The position numbers and the translations under genes are program-made. Shown piece by piece: positions 9,259-63,864 of a DNA stretch of 64,000 bases. The notes beneath the pieces were generated by a model. That model was given only the letters and a program-made list of their open reading frames with translations, had not been told where the DNA came from and did not search any database. Within the stretch, counting starts at the first letter, position 1. Each line of letters opens with the position of its first letter. Source of the stretch: Octopus vulgaris (Eukaryota); the NCBI GenBank assembly GCA_951406725.2, contig OX597837.1, positions 19,716,001-19,780,000 of the forward strand, written 5' to 3'.

Positions 9259-9306
9259 TGCCATATCATCGATGATTTCGGATTGAATTAATCCTCATTA
9301 GAGACA
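9259..9306 (-). ncRNA. Degenerate type I hammerhead ribozyme motif (G5A)
   Basis: UGUCU CUAAUGA GGAUU-aauuc-AAUCC GAA AUCAUCGAUGAU A UGGCA; 5-bp stem II and perfectly palindromic stem III. Confidence 0.6.
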
Positions 9307-9531: not shown

Positions 9532-9567
9532 CAGTTGAAAAAGTCTCAATGACTGAAACCGATACTG
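9532..9567 (+). ncRNA. Minimal type I hammerhead-like motif with U3-A8 core
   Basis: CAG UUGAAAA AGUC-ucaau-GACU GAAA CCGA UA CUG. Confidence 0.5.
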
Positions 9568-14777: not shown

Positions 14778-16059
14778 TTGGGTTGTTCGGAAAGTTCGTG
14801 CCGATTTTTAAAGGAAAGAAAAAGGTCAATAAATACTTGCCATTACATTTTTAATCAACCAAGTATGTGCCATTTTGTTGCACAATGCATCTCCATCTTT
14901 CCTTTAACTTGAAAATACCCTCTTCCCAGAATTGAGGTGGTTTCAGGATCGCAAAGAATTCATCAAGATATCTTTTTACGTCATCCAAGGAATTGAAATT
15001 TTTACCATTAAGACTATTCTGCAGAGACCTGAATAAGTGGAAATCTGAAAGAGCAATATCTGGTGAATATGGAGGGTGGGGTAACACATCCGAGCCGAGC
15101 TGCAGCAATTTTTGTCTGGTTCCCAAAGAAACGTGTGGTATTGCATTATCATGTTGGAAAACAACACCCTTCCTGTTGGCCAATTCTGGACGTTTCTCTT
15201 GAATTGCTGCTTTTAACTTGTCCAGTTGTGTGCAGTATTTCTCAGAATTAATTCTCTGGTTACTTGGGAGAAGCTCATAGTACAGAATTGATTTCCAATC
15301 GCACCAGACACAAAGCAAGATTTTTTAGGGAGAAGACCCACTTTTGTGGTGGCTAAGGGTGGCTCATGTCGCTTACTCCAGGATCGCTTTCTCTGAACCC
15401 TTCGGTAGATAATCCATTCCTCATCATCTGTCACAATTTGTTTAAAAAAGGCGCATTTTCATTCCGTTTATAAAGCGAATCACAGATGGAAATGCGATCC
15501 AAAAGATTCTCACACAGCTCCTGTGGTACCCAAACATCATAGCGATTTGTGTACCCAAGCTTTACCAGGTGCTCACGAACGACGGATTTTGATAGGTTGA
15601 GGCTTTCTGCCAATTCTCGGGTTGTGCAATGTGGGTTATTCTCAATTAATGACTTGATTTGGTCATCATCTGTAGTGGATGGTCTGCCTGATCACTCTTT
15701 ATCAATAAGGCTACATTCTCCAGTTCGGAACCTTGCGAACCGCTTCCGTACAGTTCTTTCGGATAAAGAAACATCACCGTAAACTGCACATATTTCTTTG
15801 GTTGCTTGTGAGACATTTTTCCCTTTACAGAAAAAGAAAAGCATCGAGTGCCGAAAATGAACTTTCTTATCTTCCGTTTTAAAGGGTTACAGAATTAACA
15901 CAGGTTATAGGAACATAAACCTTCTTCCAGGAAAAGTTAGCTTAAACTGTGCTCTGAATGGAGGTGTAGTCAAATCCTATTTTATGGACTCAACCATGTT
16001 CTAAAATAAGTTGAAATGCAAGCTACTATAAATCGGCAAGAACTTTCAGGACAACCCAA
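14778..16059 (-). mobile_element. Full-length mariner transposon (1282 bp), DD34D
   Basis: About 30-bp TIRs TTGGGTTGTTCGGAAAGTTCGTGCCGATTT / TTGGGTTGTCCTGAAAGTTCTTGCCGATTT; TA TSD at 14776-77 and 16060-61. Confidence 0.96.
14851..15877 (-). pseudogene. Mariner transposase pseudogene
   Basis: Probable start mutated to ACG (EDKKVHFRH follows); WVPQEL, TDDEEW, QHDNA..YSPDIALSD with 34 residues between D2 and D3; several frameshifts. Confidence 0.93.
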
Positions 16060-35735: not shown

Positions 35736-37780
<2,045 letters not shown>

Positions 37781-41489: not shown

Positions 41490-42465
41490 TACTCACGTAT
41501 ATATATTTATATATGCATGTATATATACATGTAGATGTAGGTACGTACATATATGTATGTATGTATGCATGTATTTTATTTATTACACTATTGTATGACT
41601 GAGTGCCCTCGCGTCGATTCGATTCGTTTCGTTTCGTTTCATCTCCTCCAAGTAAGTTTTTATATATAATTATGACGCGAAACTCTATAACCCTTTGCTT
41701 GACCTTCCCTTCCTTCCCTATCTCTCTCTCTCTCTCTCTCTCACTCCTCATCTCTCTCACAGCCGCTTGTCTTCCTCTATCTCTCTCTCTCTCACTCCTT
41801 CTCATCTCTCTCACAGCCGGGCGACTGCTTCCTTTCGCCTGCGGCCTCCTAACTGTGAACACACGTTCTTCCTGCGCTCTTAAGAATCTTTCCTCATCTA
41901 GGCCAAAAAAAGGCCCTCATTGTTTGTTTTCTTGTTTGTTTTTATTTCTTGTACTGTATATTTTTGTAATTGTATTTTTATTTTGTATTTTATTTTGTAT
42001 TTTATTTTTAAATTTTATTTGTATCGTTTTTACGTCCTGTTTTTGTCACATTTTCCCTTGTTTTTACCCCTCTGCGAAGTAATTTTATTTAATTCTTTCG
42101 CAGGAAGGGCTAGTTCGACGAGTCGTGTTCTGTCCTCACCTGCGAAACACGCTGGAGTTGAACTAGGGACAGCTGATGAAGGGGAATTTTCCTTGAGTAG
42201 TTTGTCTTGCACTCTGTTTTTTCGTTGTTAAAAAAGATCCGTTTCCATGTTTGTTTTTACGTTTTCGTTTCTCGTTGAGTTCTACGTCTATTTGTGGTGT
42301 CCTGTACTCACATATATATATTTATATATGCATGTATATATACATGTATATGTAGGTACGTACATATATGTATGTATGCATATATTTTATTTATTACACT
42401 ATTGTATGACTGAGCGCCCTCGCGTCGATTGGATTCGTTTCGTTTCGTTTCATCCCCTCCAAGTA

Positions 42466-42470
<5 letters not shown>
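41490..42470 (+). mobile_element. Penelope-like 3' module with about 170-bp direct repeats (41490-41659 and 42305-42470)
   Basis: Near-identical direct repeats each followed by TA repeats; pyrimidine-rich interior containing an HHR-like motif. Confidence 0.7.
42096..42185 (+). ncRNA. Candidate rearranged (non-circularly permuted) hammerhead ribozyme
   Basis: CGUGU-U-CUGUCC ... GAA-ACACG ... GGACAG-CUGAUGA: stems III and I are perfect and abut the core nucleotides; stem II is imperfect. Confidence 0.55.
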
Positions 42471-42513
<43 letters not shown>

Positions 42514-42572
42514 CATATATACACACATATATACATATATATATACATATATATATATACATATACATATAC

Positions 42573-42625
<53 letters not shown>

Positions 42626-42633
42626 TATATACA

Positions 42634-43065
42634 CAAATTGAGATAGGGGTTGTAAATGCAACCCTCCATGGGATAACATATATCCAATATACTGCTAGTG
42701 AAGTACCCAACAAATGTTAAGGATTGCGATGCAATCAATTCATTTACTGTATTATATGGGCAAAGGTAAAATGTGTTACCACAAATTCATAATACAAAAT
42801 AAGAAAATGGAGAAATGCATCTAAATCAAATATCAATTACCAGATAATACTCAATCACATACTTTATTAAACCACCACATAAGAAACTATAGGGTTAAAC
42901 ATAAAAAAGTAGAGCAAAACAGTGTATATAAAGGAGTGTACATAAAAAAGTGTACATAAAAGAGTAATGTTATACAATAAGTAGAATATATATAAGAGAA
43001 TATGTGATTGAGTATTATCTGGTAATTGATATTTGATTTAGATGTATTTCTCCATTTTCTTATTT

Positions 43066-43069
<4 letters not shown>
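42634..43069. mobile_element. Penelope-like terminal module with 69-bp inverted arms (42793-42861 / 43001-43069)
   Basis: Homologous to 10927-11451; flanked by (TA)n. Confidence 0.7.
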
Positions 43070-43116
<47 letters not shown>

Positions 43117-43285
43117 TAATTGTTATCGCCATATTAATATGGTATTCTTATAGATATAAGAATAATCGCTGCCGCTGGTCAGCTCCATGAAGCCACCGCC
43201 ATCAAGATAGCTATTGATACACGATCTGTATCCATTATAACCTTCGAACAAGGGAGGTCAGCCGCTTCACACTGCCAGTCCGACA

Positions 43286-43327
43286 GCTACAGACGCGTTT
43301 CGGGGTATTGCCCCTTGTCAATGTAGC
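43286..43327 (-). ncRNA. Minimal type I hammerhead ribozyme, U3-A8 variant
   Basis: GCUACA UUGACAA GGGG-caaua-CCCC GAA ACGCGU C UGUAGC; GUC cleavage triplet, palindromic stem III. Confidence 0.82.
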
Positions 43328-43649
43328 GCAGTCAGACCCGCAGGTGTCGCCACTGACGTCTCTGTTCGAAGGTTTCTATTTACCTAGTTTCAGTGGAATA
43401 CATCCACTTGTTTTCAATAATAGAAATATTAAAATTACTAAGTCTCTATAAAAGAGATTACGGCAGCGTTTACTGAAAATTAATTGTTATCTCCATATTA
43501 ATATGGCATTCTTATAGATATAAGAATAATCGCTGCCGCTGGTCAGCTCCATGAGGCCACCGCCATCAAGATAGCTATTGATACACGATCTGTATCCATT
43601 ATAACCTTCGAACAAGGGAGGTCAGCCGCTTCACACTGCCAGTCCGACA

Positions 43650-43691
43650 ACTACAGACGCGTTTCGGGGTATTGCCCCTTGTCAATGTAGC
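43650..43691 (-). ncRNA. Second copy of the minimal type I hammerhead
   Basis: Identical except that the terminal G-C of stem I becomes G-U. Confidence 0.82.
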
Positions 43692-43990
43692 GCAGTCAGA
43701 CCCGCAGGTGTCGCCACTGACGTCTCTGTTCGAAGGTTTCTATTTACCTAGTTTCAGTGGAATACATCCACTGTCGGACTGGTAGTGTGAAGCGGCTGAC
43801 TTCCCTTGTTCGAAGGTTATAATGGATACAGATCGTGTATCAATAGCTATCTTGATGGCGGTGGCCTCATGGAGTTGACCAGCGGCAGCGATTATTCTTA
43901 TATCTATAAGAATGCCATATTAATATGGCGATAACAATTAATTTCCAGTAAACGCTGCCGTAATCTCTTTTATAGAGACTTAGTATTTTA

Positions 43991-44055
<65 letters not shown>

Positions 44056-44180
44056 ATTCGAGACACAACCACTATTTTAAAACCAAACAAGGAAAGACTT
44101 AATATAATATTTTACTATAAAATTGGATTTAACCCTAAATCTGATTTTTCCCTGTAATTTTGGATTCATTCCCTAATATT

Positions 44181-44237
<57 letters not shown>

Positions 44238-44397
44238 GATATGAATTACAAGCAGCGCTAGTGGTGTAAACATTATCGCCTACACATACCTGTTCGCCGG
44301 CAGGCTGCAGTAGTGCGGTGGGGTGACATCCTCAAGGCGCCGGGTATTAAAGCACCTGAAAGTCATAGACAAGCGAGTCAGCTCACCCCAAATCCCT

Positions 44398-44460
44398 TTC
44401 AGGAGCGATAGACATCGATGTTTCGCCATTTCTGAGACTTATCAACATCATGTGCCTGAA
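44398..44460 (-). ncRNA. Type I hammerhead ribozyme, U3-A8 variant, different family
   Basis: UUCAGG..UGAUG UUGAUAA GUC-ucagaaau-GGC GAA ACAUCGAUGU C UAUCG..CCUGAA. Confidence 0.72.
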
Positions 44461-44826
44461 CCAAATCGGAAGTGAATTGAATGTATTTGTATGTATTTCA
44501 TGTTACGCTAAGAAGTGCTGCGCGGTACCAGAATGCTCGAGTTGAGTCAAATAAAACAGTATTCAAAATCATTGTTAGCGTATCCACATAAGTGGCGTCT
44601 AGACCGGTTAATTTCTACTGGCATCGAGTCGTATAAGCTGTAATGGTGACGTCAAACTAAATACTGATATTTTGATTGAACCATTTCCAGCAATATATTC
44701 ATATTTTGAATTGCTACAACTGAGGAAGATTTTGCGTATTTTCCTTTATATATTACGGAAACCAGAAATGTATATACCAAATGATTTCAAAATATCTCTA
44801 TTTTGGTTTGACTTCATTATTACAAC

Positions 44827-44907
<81 letters not shown>

Positions 44908-45005
44908 AATATACCGGAGGAAGCACATAAATGGAGGTAGAGTAATATGCTTTATCTAAAGCATCAGAAATATCACGAAGTTGTTCTCGTTCGTCGGACA
45001 GTTTC

Positions 45006-45044
45006 GTCCGACGAGCGGGAACGTGAAACTCTGAGTAACAGTTT
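45006..45044 (+). ncRNA. Hammerhead-like motif with U4C core; 5' stem I strand displaced to an adjacent inverted copy
   Basis: GU CCGACGA GCG-ggaa-CGU GAA ACUCuGAGU A ACAGUUU; minus strand 44983-45004 reads AAACUGU CCGACGA ACGAGAAC. Confidence 0.55.
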
Positions 45045-45089
45045 TGTAATATTTTTCTGCTGCTTTTATATAAGCTACATATATATATG

Positions 45090-45123
<34 letters not shown>

Positions 45124-45171
45124 TGTATGTATGTATGTATGTATGTATGTATCTATGTATGTATGTATGTG

Positions 45172-45208
<37 letters not shown>

Positions 45209-45220
45209 ACATGTATATAC

Positions 45221-45288
<68 letters not shown>

Positions 45289-45907
45289 ATATGTATATCT
45301 GTGAAGTTGTACAAAGAGATGAATGCAAACCGTGATTATTTTAAATTAATGTTTCCTAATACAGAATGGTAGCCATCTCAATAATGTATGTGTGCGTTTA
45401 TGAACTAATAGTTGTTACTGAGTGTAGTTTGTTTTACGTTAAACAAAGAGATATATTGTTGAGTTGATTGAGACTAAATTAATTGAGAATATTTAAAGAA
45501 AAATAAATTAAGAGTAACAACAGGTGGTGAAATTTAGAAACGCTATGTCGACAACAACTGGGTCTAAGCAGATGTCTTTGTTTTGATGGACGTGTGAATG
45601 TATGAAATGTAATTCTTGGACATGGATTTACATAAAACGGCGAATTAGTTACAATTGGGAACATCTGTTAATACGTGTGTAATCGATACGACTGGTGTGG
45701 ATAATCCTAATTCTTTTAAGGATTAGGATTATATGTTTTATCAAAACAAAAGAAAAAAATGTGAGACATTCAGATGTACAAATAGATGATCATTGTATAT
45801 TGATGGTATCAGCTCTCATCCACACACCAGCTTATACACGCGCGCACCGTCCGCCGTACACACACGCATAGCTGATACACACTATCTTTGACTCCCTGTG
45901 TCTCTCC

Positions 45908-45981
45908 ATTCGGCTTCTTGTGCCCGATGAGCTAGGTTTCTGAAAGAACCTGACGAAACTTTAACTCACATGGCGCCGAAT
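45908..45981 (+). ncRNA. Degenerate type I hammerhead-like motif (U4C)
   Basis: AUUCGGC..UGUGC CCGAUGA GcUAGGUUuC-ugaaa-GAACCUGaC GAAA..UCACA..GCCGAAU. Confidence 0.45.
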
Positions 45982-46292
45982 CAAACTGTTTTAAATAATA
46001 ACATATGGTACTCTTCCTAAATGTGTCGACTACCACTTTCTTCTGTTGGTGCATTCACTCGTAAAGCTAGTAACATGTCCAGGAATCCGATAGGGGGCAA
46101 TACTGAACAGTTACGGTGATTTTTACACTTTTTACCATAAAAGAGAATTTTTTGCCTCCATGGTAACTGAAGAGAATTTGGTTTTAGAAGTTAAAATAAG
46201 TCACAAACATATTTTGACTAACCAAAACTTCGCTTATGACTTAACACTGCTTGGTGCTGATACTGCTGTAATACATATATAATATACATACA

Positions 46293-46328
<36 letters not shown>

Positions 46329-46330
46329 TA

Positions 46331-46543
46331 TTACTCTTTTTACTCTTTTACTTGTTTCAGTCATTTGACTGCGGCCATGCTGGAGCACCGCCTTTAGTCG
46401 AGCAAATCGACCCCAGGACTTATTCTTTGTAAGCCCAGTACTTATTCTATCGGTCTCTTTTGCCCAACCGCTAATTGACGGGGACGTAAACACACCAGCA
46501 TCGGTTGTCAAGCAATGCTAGGGGGACAAACACAGACACACAA

Positions 46544-46624
<81 letters not shown>

Positions 46625-46756
46625 TACGACAGGCTTCTTTCAGTTTCCGTCTACCAAATCCACTCACAAGGCATTGGTCGGCCCGGGGCTATAGCAGAAG
46701 ACACTTGCCCAAGATGCCACGCAGTGGGACTGAACCCGGAACCATGTGGTTGGTAA
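46331..46756 (-). mobile_element. SINE family A, well-preserved copy
   Basis: Head ttaccaaccacatggttccgggttcagtcccactgc; internal TA/CA array; tail gactgaaacaagtaaaagagtaaaaagagta. Confidence 0.9.
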
Positions 46757-46929
46757 TAAAATTATCTTGTTCCTCCTTGTTTCTCTCCTTTTTTTTCTGT
46801 GTCCCTTTGTGTAGAAGAGCGCAGGCTCGAAACGTAGAAGACTTTTTCTAGTCCTGAGCGTTATACTAATACATCTGTTTGTTTTGTACACCACCTGTCT
46901 TCGTCTTTTGTTTTTTTTTTGTAAACTCT

Positions 46930-46985
<56 letters not shown>

Positions 46986-50562: not shown

Positions 50563-52566
50563 CTCCCAAATTTTAGTAATTTCTTTTATGATCCAAAACT
50601 AAGTCAAAAGTACTGAATGGATCTTTATGAAATTTGGAAATTATATACTATGCATAAGGGCCATAATTCGCATGCCACTTCATATATTTTTGCTGGTGAT
50701 GAAATTTTAACCATAGATATTAGACACACATGAAATAATATTTATGAAATTCCATCTTCTTACAAGTTAGAAAGACCCCTCCATGGGGACTTAACACCCA
50801 CAATTTTGTCATTTTATCTAAGCAAAGACGAATATAGTTGTACTCTTGGAAGCTGTAGGGTTACCCGAGCATAAAAGATGAGCATTATTTGTAATTCAAT
50901 GGTACAACAGTGTAACAGTTTGCTTTGACATACACTTACATTGTGATTTCTGCAATGTGGTGCATAAATTGTCAAGTAAATGAGAAGCATCTTTGCCTCC
51001 ACTGATTCATTTGCAAAGTGTTGAGTAAAGTTATTTGTTTGCAGACCTCCTTTCAGTCTTTTTATTATCACTGGGTCACACATAGTCCCCAGATGGTAAC
51101 ATTGATTTCAAGGCCTTCCCAGATGAGTGACTGGTTATTCAAAGACATTTATAGATTGTAAATTTATTCTGTCCAGTTACGTATCAGTATAGTGGTCATT
51201 TGCAAACTCCACAGGTGACTCTTTTATTTCTCCTTAGCCCTCACGTCACACAGTTGTTGATGTTTATTTCAGTTGGGTCAAGCCCTTCCAGTTGCTATAG
51301 TTTCATAATACATCTTACGTCTGTGCCTGTCACCTGCATGGTGAGGAATCCTACATTGGGAATGGCAACGACTAGGGTAGGGTAGCTGACAGCTTATTGT
51401 TTTCATTCGTCTTTTGGTTTCCTGTAGCTTTGTTCTCTTTTACAAACCCAGTCAACATATATTTCCTATTTCAAGGAAATTCAAACCATAGATATAAGAC
51501 CCAAGTTTAAAAGATTCTCAACAATTCAACTTCTCTGTTTGACATTAAGACACCAACCCCCAACAGGGGCCTTAACTCTCACATTTTAGAGCTCCATGAC
51601 CTTCATTTTTCAGGAGCAAAATCCTTTTAACAGGTTCTATAAGACTGGAATTTTGAAATATGCGCATAAAAATCAATAGTATGGGATACATGTGGCACAA
51701 TTACAATTTTTTAGGGTGTGTAAAGAGGGAAATAACCCTCAGCTGCAATTTTGATGAAATTCGAAGCATAGATATTCCAGTTCATTACAGAAAATATAAC
51801 AAAAAAGTCTAATTCTTCAATTGCATGTAAAACTGGCAACGCCGGGTATCTCTGCTAGTATATATATAATTCTCTCTTATTCTTATATAGTGACTTCGAA
51901 GTTTCGGCCAGCTAAGCCTTCGTCGGACTGTATATGTATATGTATACTTACGCGCGCGCGCACACACACACACATAAATGGGAGTGGTGATGGTGGTGGT
52001 GGTGTATGGAATCAAGAGAGGAATTGGTGACAGAGGGGAAGGAGCAAGTAAGTGGATGATGGTGCCACCAGGAAAGGAAAAAAAGGGGTGCGTATGAAGA
52101 AATAGCTGTTGATTGGTTATATGGATTGATGTATAGGTGCAGTGTAATGATACGAGACACAAAGGGATCGGTAGGTAGGAACATGTACTCTAAGTTGGGA
52201 AGAAAGTATTAAGAAATATACAGGAACAGACAGAAAGATACAGGGAGGGTGAGACAGACGGAATGAGAGGCAGAGTGAAGAAAAAAGAAAAAGGAAGAAA
52301 AATAACACGGTTTTAAAATGTAGGAAGAAAACAATATGTTGAAGGTAGCAACACGGAAAACAGAATAAGCATGCATAAATTTGAAGCTGAATAAAAGCTA
52401 AGAATGTAGAAATGTCTTTGGTGATTCGAACTTCAGCTCTTCTTCAGAAAATTGGATAGAAGGAAATGTATAAAGGAAAGCAACCCTTCTATCTGTCTCA
52501 TTCACTCACCATCTCTCTCTTTCCATATACATATGCATGGGTGTGCGTGCGCGGTCCTCTGTTTGG

Positions 52567-52799: not shown

Positions 52800-53225
52800 G
52801 TGCAGCCAGTTATTAGGGATGCCACTGGTCTCTGTTCTCTATCTGCCTCTCTTTCGCCCTCCCTCAACTGTGCCCTGAAGAATGGTTTCGGGCAGGGATA
52901 CATGACCGTACCAGGCAAGTTTGCGTCGTTTTCCTTGCGCCAGGAGAGGATCTTGTCTGCCAGCGTATTTGCTGACCTGCTGCCCGATGAAGCTGCTCGT
53001 TTTGTGCTCTGCATGCCGGATATGTAATACCTTTCTAAAGCACTTATTTTCAAATGTTTGGATTCTTCGCTCAATGTCAGCTGTAAGAGTCCAGTTCTCC
53101 CACCCATACAGAAGGATCGAAGTCACCAGAGACTTATACACGCTGAGTCTTGTTGGAAAACTAATGGAATTGTTTTTCCATATGTTGTTCATCTTCGTCA
53201 GGCAGCAGAGACTAAACTGAATCTT
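52800..53225 (-). mobile_element. RTE (BovB-like) LINE fragment, C-terminal to RT
   Basis: YKSLVTSILLYGWENWTL..RIQTFENKCFRKVL..RRKLAWYGHV..ILQGTVEGGRKRGR. Confidence 0.88.
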
Positions 53226-53534
53226 ATTGTTATCTGTTTTTGAGATTAGTATTAGACTACGAGCTACTTTTAGTTTCGTGCTTTGGAAGCTCAATAAACC
53301 GGCAGATTTATATATCATGACTTGTGCCTCTAAGCAAGAAAGAAGGCAGCTCCAACAGTTAGTGCTGTGGTACACATTTCCGATTGAGTAGACAAGAACA
53401 TTGCGAAATAAAGAGTGTTGCTCGAGGCCACCAAACAGCGCCCTATCTAAGAATTGGACCGACGATCGTATAAGACTCAGCCAAACACTGCAGAACTAGA
53501 CTAGACACATTTATCTATATTTTATCGTTTCTAT

Positions 53535-59029: not shown

Positions 59030-60543
59030 TTTAACTGAACGCCACGTATCCATTTCCAAGTTAGATTATCTTAACCTTTTTGATGCGACTCTACTCTATA
59101 CTGTTTTCTCCCCCATCCTTCTCTAATTCCCTTTTTGTCCCCTTCACCGTTTTCTATTTGTCTTTCTCCCCCTCTCTCCCATCTTCCTCTTTTCTCCCTC
59201 TTGTTGCTCACACGTGACCATCGTCAATCTTTCTTTCCCTCACGTGACCATCTTTCTCCTCTTACACGACGTTCTAAGGACTGGACGTTTTCTTTCTCTC
59301 TCTTCTATTTTTTCTCTTGTCAAAGAAAATATTTCTCCAAGCGTTCACTATTTTCCTCTCGTTCTGGTCTAACCATTCTCCATGTTTGTTGGTGGCCGGA
59401 TCCTCTACTGGATCCGGCAATCATGTCACATAATAAGCCAATACGAAGGAGTATAATTCAAAGTTTTATGCAGCTGAATTCCAGGAGTCCAATCGATGAA
59501 ATTTTTTCTTCTGAAGCTTACAGACCATGAAAAGTCATAGAATTGAAGCATTAGTGTAAACCATGCTATTCTGGTGACCTAAAGAGCCAGCTTTCTAAAT
59601 CTGCATTGATTTGTAAACGTATTGTACAATGCGTAGCATGCATATTCTCCGTTACGATAAGATCAGCAAAGGACTCCATCCGGTGGGAGATATTGTTTAA
59701 TGTATACAACATATAGTTATGCACAATCAGGTTTTAATAACCTAGTCTCTCCAAGCAATGTTCAGGCTCTAAGCATATAGCCTGTACAAGTTGCAAATCA
59801 GGTCAATAGAACAAGAGCAGCACTACGCGATAACCTAACCGAAAAGAAGAATAGCATTGGGTTATGCGTAGGTAATTTCAAAAGATGCTATGCTAATCAC
59901 CTATCTTCTTTCCGGGACATGGATAAAAGCAAAACCACTAAGTTGGCTAACCACGCATGGGATTTGAAGACCAACTTCACGTCACATACAATCAAGTGGA
60001 AGATCATAGAAAAATCCATGCCCTATGTTAATAAATTGAAAAGAAATGCAAGTTACGAGAAGCTGAAAGATCGCATATCTATTTTAGATCTAAGAATTCC
60101 ACCGTACTGCTGAATTCCAGACCAGAAATTGTCAGCAAATGCAAACATATCAACAAGTTTCCTTTGATGAACTGGAGAACACCACCCTCTCCGGACTGAG
60201 TAGCTGTATCACAGAATTTAGGCACCAATTAGCTTTATAGTTTTATGGCTTTAAAATCAAAGATATATAATTCTAATACTCTGCTTTCTTTTTTCCTTTC
60301 TTTTTCCGTTTCTTTCACCCTTCCACTTTTTGCATTCATCTTCCACTCGTTTATTCTCAAAGTTTCTTTTGTTCTATCGTCCTGATTTGCAACTTGTATA
60401 TGTCATGAGGTCAAAAGTTAGAAATGTATATTTCACTCCAAGTTAGATGCTGGTGGCATTATGGTGTGTTGCAAGTAGTTCACACACATTGGTGAAGACA
60501 AATAAAGTTTCTTGTTACACTCCGTCTTCCATATCAGTCATTT
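59030..60543 (+). mobile_element. Penelope-like element remnant with GIY-YIG endonuclease C-terminus (about 59760-60199)
   Basis: SIGLCVGNFKRCYANHLSSFR..TTKLANHAWDLK..IKWKIIEKSMPY; after a frameshift LLNSRPEIVSKCKHINKF; flanked by (TA)n. Confidence 0.75.
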
Positions 60544-63790: not shown

Positions 63791-63864
63791 GAAGCGGGGG
63801 CCTACCACACGTTGATGATAGGCAATACACCTTGAAACCTAGGTCCGTGTGTGGTTTCCGCTTC
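63791..63864 (+). ncRNA. Type I hammerhead ribozyme motif with extended stem I
   Basis: GAAGCGG..CACACG UUGAUGA uAGG-caauaca-CCUu GAA ACCUAGGU C CGUGUG..CCGCUUC. Confidence 0.72.

Follow-up and report, generated by a model that had tools for sequence, protein, structure and literature searches.

Positions 41490 to 46930 of a 64,000-nucleotide (nt) stretch of Octopus vulgaris DNA (contig OX597837.1, positions 19,716,001 to 19,780,000; hereafter the window) contain seven hammerhead ribozyme motifs from six unrelated, high-copy repeat families. The source is a 2.8-Gb, microsatellite-rich animal genome. The original prediction had placed seven motifs in six modules here, and every one of them was found where it had been placed, its coordinates marking motif edges and not core positions. 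We analyzed the region with custom-written hammerhead descriptors, using as controls dinucleotide shuffles and a genome sample of 120 stretches of 10 kb evenly stepped across the genome (1.2 Mb; L numbers below denote genomic loci). The region is probably a pile of six unrelated repeats without open reading frames (ORFs), likely inserted at TA runs by Penelope-like enzymes; five of them carry ordinary type I motifs, and one, module 1, carries a predicted split-core hammerhead (Table 1).

Table 1 Features of the hammerhead-bearing region. Positions are those of the window.
Feature	Position	Strand	Description
Module 1 (family A)	41490–42479	+	More-than-unit-length copy of an ORF-less unit of ~815 nt
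Predicted split-core hammerhead	42067–42184	+	Covers helix IV to helix IV
Helix IV	42067–71/42180–84	+	Predicted
Hairpin V	42072–42103	+	Predicted
Stem II	42104–08/42139–43	+	Predicted, upstream strand
I–II joining helix	42110–19/42157–66	+	Predicted
Stem III	42124–28/42147–51	+	Predicted
Stem I	42130–35/42167–72	+	Predicted
Core blocks	GAAA 42144–47; CUGAUGA 42173–79	+	
Predicted cut	42129/42130	+	GUU
Module 2	43113–43989	−	364-nt retrozyme-like unit; partial tandem with inverted arm (43772–43989); between two (TA)n tracts
Module 2, first hammerhead	43286–43327	−	Minimal type I; U3-A8 core UUGACAA; palindromic stem III; intact
Module 2, second hammerhead	43650–43691	−	364 nt from the first; predicted dimer partner
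Module 3 hammerhead	44406–44450	−	Type I; U3-A8 core UUGAUAA; palindromic 5-base-pair stem III
Module 4	44905–45078	+	Fold-back insertion; U4C core CCGACGA at 45008–14
Module 5	45915–45998	+	Core CCGAUGA at 45924–30; stem III mismatch; 3′ end without TA run
Abundant repeat resembling a short interspersed nuclear element (SINE)	46331–46757	+	No hammerhead motif; abuts module 6; similar text in flanks of many loci
Module 6	46758–46932	+	Family core CUGUNGA (A6U); ends in (TA)n at 46933

In module 1, positions 41490–41668 repeat 42305–42479, and a (TA)n end lies at 42470. A first-look search yielded 1961 family A candidates, 40 of which were scored and showed 95–98% identity. Insertions of this family include more-than-unit, tandem, and inverted copies with tandem periods of 804–882 nt. 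Thirteen of 21 loci have a (TA)n end, and in seven of the other eight the landmark stopped short of the end. No ORF for a GIY-YIG endonuclease and reverse transcriptase was present in the unit, and 16 frames flanking family A copies gave no relevant Pfam match.

The hammerhead parts of module 1 occur in the order cleavage site, GAAA, CUGAUGA, an arrangement with these strands that no circular permutation allows. In the predicted fold, stem II is closed by a strand lying upstream of all other parts, and the bases after A9 pair further upstream still, forming helix IV around hairpin V. The core is thus predicted to be opened between A9 and G10.1. The original prediction had listed this motif (42124) without noting a different wiring; readings as type III, type II, or a decayed type I motif at 42173 were rejected, since no stems fit. 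The predicted wiring is the most interesting part of the cluster. The window copy has an A·G mismatch in stem II at 42142, where the family base is T and where nearly all depth of eight public runs reads T; because of this mismatch, the copy itself is likely impaired.

Relatives whose stem I and III sequences are entirely different were recovered with a descriptor that imposes no block order, and expansion gave 2185, 2019, 1796, and 1713 candidates for families B, C, D, and E, respectively. Pairs were counted on hand-defined blocks (site, GAAA, CUGAUGA, and stems) because a MAFFT alignment of eight copies misaligned the site block. Among representatives of seven families (A–G), Watson–Crick pairs accounted for 35 of 35 in stem I, 35 of 35 in stem II with the upstream strand (up to four pair types per position), 25 of 28 in stem III (28 of 28 with G·U), and 19 of 21 in helix IV, the first position of which showed three pair types. 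When strands were swapped between families, the paired fraction was 0.27–0.63. The permutation ranks of stems I, II, III, and helix IV were 1, 12, 1, and 120 of 5040, respectively. The upstream stem II strand and helices IV and V were not selected for at discovery, because the descriptors for families A–F did not ask for them. All seven representatives, and also the window copy, keep the core C3 U4 G5 A6 N7 G8 A9, G12 A13 A14, A15.1-U16.1, H17, and G10.1-C11.1; H17 was U, A, or C in the seven and never G, which the descriptor excluded. The I–II linker is 2–5 nt long, and the joining helix has 10 base pairs (bp) in family A and 5–9 bp in B, C, E, and F, while it scored weakly in D and G. The split-core descriptor gave one match and none in 10 shuffles. 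These data show the anatomy, copy structure, and pairing covariation of the module 1 fold at the sequence level.

By eye, the internal loops of families B, D, and E are loop-E-like, and no canonical kink-turn pattern was seen in that of family A. Family G (L267:2634–2759, minus strand, and L164) has a split-core motif with a C/D-like internal loop, and a copy in the flank of L008 starts near the predicted cut.

The same parts could instead form an ordinary type SGC hammerhead, in which stem II is formed by the bases that directly follow CUGAUGA, with one base inserted, while the upstream match represents a different pairing that is inhibitory. In the accessible parts of its description, type SGC has the order site, GAAA, CUGANGA, and CUGANGA is assumed to stay with its neighboring stem I and II strands (Eckert et al. 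2023, PMC10085705). Module 1 agrees with it in block order, short linker, joining helix, and kept core bases, and an SGC-order descriptor gave three matches in 1.2 Mb and none in five shuffles. The adjacent register also pairs 25 of 35 positions when G·U is allowed. However, only 13 of 35 are Watson–Crick pairs, no position shows a second pair type, and the register ranks 3336 of 5040; it is reduced to 2 bp in the type carried by Naiad_Ovul (see below) and to none in family G. Furthermore, the bases in question are those that pair in helix IV with the counts and pair types given above. Type SGC has an unbroken block C, with the stem II strand 0–2 nt after CUGANGA, and module 1 lacks this; unlike types SGC and CSG, it takes a stem II strand from upstream, runs from A9 into helix IV, and adds hairpin V. 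The 13 of 35 pairs of the adjacent register against 35 of 35 for the upstream stem II led us to reject type SGC for the motif at 42124, and we consider that reading quite improbable. The published examples come from metatranscriptomes, metagenomes, and one bacterium, and no mention of animals or transposons was found in the available parts of the text and supplement (PMC10085705). The pseudoknot hammerhead shares with module 1 an extra helix and a pseudoknot near stem II, but in the accessible description it has G10.1-C11.1 directly after A9 and its core is unopened (Zhan et al. 2024, PMC11300833).

The opened fold can also be read in Naiad elements. Naiads target (TA)n and have been described as lacking canonical hammerheads, with eight cases of core halves 35–50 nt apart, and Naiad_Ovul is flagged ‘HHR_half_core’ in the supplement (Craig et al. 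2021, PMC8557442, as far as accessible). In the available portion of that supplement, the split-core fold was readable by eye in the tails of Naiad_Ovul and of the preceding record (Naiad_Obim by order). By eye, family E copies match the last 130 nt of Naiad_Ovul with few differences, and the fold is thereby linked to an autonomous Naiad that targets (TA)n. Because all ten family E loci are truncated within ~350 nt, the connection to Naiad ORFs depends on the consensus in the literature. In the first 60 of 81 CGAAAC places in the supplement plus one further search, seven records appeared split-core by eye, and eight, mostly from nematodes and including Naiad-2_Nbra and Naiad-3_Nbra, appeared to be type CSG with an unbroken block C. 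Many Naiad records there show neither arrangement, and line breaks hide some motifs. Module 1 resembles Naiads in its (TA)n targets, partial tandems, and inverted 5′ copies; unlike Naiad_Ovul it is ORF-less, and the two have the fold but no long sequence in common. Split-core or permuted hammerheads in Naiads were not reported in the literature searched, with subscription papers and bioRxiv supplements outside its reach.

Nematode and other Naiad tails in the accessible records read as textbook type CSG, with a helix closing block C; in the available literature, only two sequences underlie the description of this type. L348:2073–2994, which lies downstream of a copy of family E, contains broken Penelope-type reverse transcriptase frames that belong to a separate insertion.

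We find it fairly likely that an active hammerhead is present in Naiads and in the ORF-less repeats that travel with them, its catalytic strand being open between A9 and G10.1 and held together there by two additional helices. This would be a seventh wiring, outside the six of the three-block scheme; together with the nematode type CSG it would supply the ‘missing’ ribozyme of the clade, and it would add at least ten thousand uncounted ribozymes in this genome. The transcript would first form the nested helices IV and V, the joining helix, and stem III, after which two crossing pairings (stems I and II) would assemble CUGAUGA, GAAA, and the UH site as in a standard hammerhead core; in place of the backbone, helices IV and V would keep A9 beside G10.1. 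Cleavage after position 17 may then release unit-length, possibly circular RNA, which a Naiad-type reverse transcriptase with a GIY-YIG endonuclease could copy into (TA)n.

Alternatively, the fold may derive from a hammerhead but no longer cut, serving as a binding or priming signal for a Naiad protein. No tested precedent for an opened core was found, and minimal Penelope hammerheads cleave poorly in vitro according to the literature. Copy ends show no sharp 5′-end pile-up at the predicted cut: one of 17 family A loci begins precisely at that point and one at +6, and the starts of the remaining partial copies lie at +5 to +14 (five distinct) or are spread from −200 to +137, in small and biased sets. 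Nevertheless, seven families retain all catalytic bases and obey the UH rule, although their stems vary freely. The family A core is also near-invariant, differing in one of 312 cells against 17 of 960 in the stems and 98 of 2270 in the 3′ flank, a weak comparison as the copies were best hits. We regard loss of cutting as unlikely.

Several further observations weigh against an active split core. GUU, the family A site, is a weaker cleavage triplet. Families A, B, and D share stem II, as do C and F, so that fewer than seven independent events are represented, and passing the descriptor was required of each representative (pass rates 16/24, 15/30, 4/30, 17/30, and 5/10). Pseudoknot-blind folding of single strands recovers only the nested helices and, in the window copy, predicts a rival hairpin immediately following A9. 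An autonomous partner for family A itself was not found.

Comparison of contigs from public runs with the window revealed no joints or clear start sites; the few loose ends near 42130 were too mixed and were not used. In favor of the main reading, the 148 flanking frames scanned with Pfam, of 252 candidates and with families B and D not among them, contained no Penelope-type protein match.

The other five modules carry type I motifs. Three of the seven motifs in the region passed a relaxed type I descriptor (cores at 43321, 43685, and 44445, all on the minus strand), the first two belonging to one family. Of 300 dinucleotide shuffles of the region, by comparison, 298 had no match and two had one match. 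The motifs at 45008, 45924, and 46809 (modules 4, 5, and 6) are damaged copies of real families, in which not all three stems and the core are intact, and they failed the descriptor. Modules 2 and 3 show stems I and II, the 3–8 core pair, and the short palindromic stem III of minimal Penelope-type hammerheads. Modules 2–6 resemble these published minimal type I ribozymes in their short stem I, palindromic stem III, and optional base after A9 (Cervera and de la Peña 2014, PMC4209133, accessible parts).

Module 2 is a young family with 1339 first-look candidates, the best 40 of which are 98–100% identical. Its copies include partial tandems, inverted arms, and variable ends, with tandem periods of 359–364 nt, and 37 of 38 intact motifs of its cluster have U3-A8 with U4. 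As an ORF-less tandem unit within 170–400 nt, with type I hammerheads in consecutive units and no Penelope ORF, it is a probable retrozyme. Its two copies would be expected to pair through the palindromic stem III and to cleave as a dimer. It resembles the animal non-LTR (long terminal repeat) retrozymes, including mussel repeats of 350–390 bp, in being an ORF-less 364-nt tandem with a type I hammerhead (Cervera and de la Peña 2020, PMC7229834; Li et al. 2026, bioRxiv 10.64898/2026.07.22.740005; accessible parts of both), but it differs from them in its U3-A8 core and its dispersed short arrays with inverted arms. The insertions of modules 1 and 2, longer than one unit and variably permuted, could be an indirect trace of circular RNA. 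Module 1 is not a retrozyme in this sense: its motif is rearranged and not type I, and its unit of ~815 nt is twice the 170–400-nt range. A module 2 copy at L014:748–1158 is separated by a few hundred bases from a copper type II monooxygenase exon on the same strand and is thus probably sense in an intron.

Module 3 belongs to an older family (80–87% identity). In the window copy of module 4, stem I is reduced to 2 bp at the inversion joint and the core is sequestered in a hairpin; this copy is predicted to be inactive, and intact relatives exist elsewhere in the genome. Module 5 represents an old family (75–91% identity) whose copies show C/T at positions 4 and 7 and G/A at positions 5 and 8, from which an ancestral CCGACGA (U4C) core worn by CpG decay appears likely. 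The module 6 family has 21 copies in the 1.2-Mb sample, which extrapolates to ~49,000 genome-wide. U occupies position 6 in 16 of 16 sampled copies counted (loci include L187, L224, L332, and L338), and sister families keep A6. Its window copy additionally carries C3G (GUGUAGA at 46809–15) and is predicted to be inactive. No match to a reverse transcriptase or GIY-YIG ORF was found within 1.3 kb upstream of modules 3–5 in the frames scanned, where short truncated copies may hide one. A scan of the window against Rfam gave nothing at the gathering score; a single weak match (HH9 at 44389–44463, E 1.1) was obtained, and the remainder up to E 10 was microsatellite noise.

The original prediction had described U3-A8 and U4C as systematic core variants of several unrelated, high-copy Penelope-type or retrozyme families, and this is supported. 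U3-A8 occurs at 43321/43685, 44445, and 9535, and U4C at 45008 and 45924. The 44445 family has U3-A8 in 17 of 24 copies and A8 in 24 of 24, and the 45008 family has CCGACGA in 22 of 24. We looked for canonical family consensuses, which would have marked the variants as post-insertion decay, and found the variant cores to be family majorities; decay as the source of U3-A8 and U4C is therefore rejected. In the first 1 Mb of the sample, 43 intact type I motifs were detected, compared with 3–5 in three shuffles; 27 were CUGANGA, nine U4C, five U3-A8, and two other, with about two U3-A8 matches per Mb expected by chance. We estimate ~100,000 or more intact motifs genome-wide. Since 16 of the 43 lack CUGANGA, plain pattern searches under-count such motifs, as had been proposed.

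U3-A8 and U4C themselves are not new. U3-A8 is present in ~1,300 Schistosoma hits of Penelope hammerheads (PMC4209133), and a viroid with U4C and a phage with A6C have been described (Perreault 2011, PMC3088659), as far as these papers were accessible. The available parts of PMC4209133 mention no family of thousands of copies in which U4C or A6U is the majority core, and no A6U core was reported in the literature searched, whose coverage of work on Penelope variants is incomplete, so that U4C or A6U may be described there. The finding that over a third of motifs are not CUGANGA, together with a family-wide A6U, makes a useful census and is a smaller point than module 1.

Outside the cluster, the motif predicted at 63806 passed the descriptor (core at 63812; U3·G8 here and CCGAUGA in sister copies), while that at 9535, with a U3-A8 core, has a stem III mismatch, and those at 9259 (G5A) and 7777, both on the minus strand, are decayed. 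The original list was incomplete, lacking an intact type I motif at 51926 (51885–51935, minus strand) with a U4C core, a base inserted after A9, and a palindromic stem III. Elsewhere in the genome, seven type I hammerhead units of ~360 nt form an array at L132:2300–3800; they have a canonical core and are relatives of the 63806 family. L116, L137, L140, L156, L161, L184, and L223 contain many type I families with a very long stem II (30–60 nt).

In five of the six modules, a TA run adjoins the sense 3′ end, module 5 being the exception, in agreement with the predicted TA bounds. TA targeting was borne out for modules 2 and 4, in which (TA)4 follows the 3′ end at 16 of 28 and 20 of 24 loci, respectively, but not for the families of modules 3 (3 of 24) and 5 (4 of 24), against a background of 222 of 4000 random places; families B and D, with unreliable 3′-end calls, were left out of the (TA)n figures. 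By homology, the region contains six motifs of five families (module 5 is absent from the library), and none of 240 sampled windows of equal size exceeded four motifs or four families. This comparison, which included worn copies, favors the region because four of its families entered the library through targeted searches, leaving the library enriched for them, and the region was picked after the fact; both points limit the comparison. Motif count rises with (TA)n content over the 120 sampled loci (rho 0.38, p 2e-5), and the (TA)n share is 6.5% in the region compared with 2.6% in the sample. The pile-up probably reflects a shared preference for TA runs, with each insertion renewing the run. Two more repeats lie between TA runs at 42632–43067, which has an internal inverted duplication, and 44056–44175; no hammerhead was seen in the parts of them examined. 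The repeat abutting module 6 may be a SINE.

It had also been suggested that the motifs could cut a host pre-mRNA spanning the region, and the cluster might even be kept because its ribozymes regulate such a transcript. The region is denser than 240 of 240 sampled windows, and module 2 has an intact tandem pair. In contrast, the motifs face both ways, four of the seven are damaged, TA content predicts motif density, and vertebrate retrozymes are depleted from introns according to the literature. No host exon was found among 17 window frames scanned with Pfam, which gave only mariner and reverse transcriptase, although a long intron is possible. The minus-strand modules 2 (a tandem pair) and 3 are the only ones that seem capable of cleavage. 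There is thus no support for the cutting of a host pre-mRNA, no host gene being shown, and retention for host regulation is very improbable. The Pfam matches were a mariner transposase fragment and a reverse transcriptase fragment among 14854–15324 (minus strand) and 35876–37422 (plus strand). Positions 52842–53495 (minus strand) and 59781–60113 (plus strand) resemble remnants of long interspersed nuclear element and Penelope type by eye and gave no Pfam match.

Although the cluster exists and its core variants are genuine, neither is unusual in a genome estimated to hold 100,000 or more intact motifs, and the main value of the region lies in the predicted wiring of module 1, for which no report in print was found in the literature searched. 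Cleavage by module 1 would mean that the hammerhead core can be broken where the current permutation scheme sees no possible break, which would change how such ribozymes are searched for and engineered. If true, this would also answer an open point about Naiads, whose presumed spread without hammerheads has been used to argue that hammerheads are dispensable passengers.

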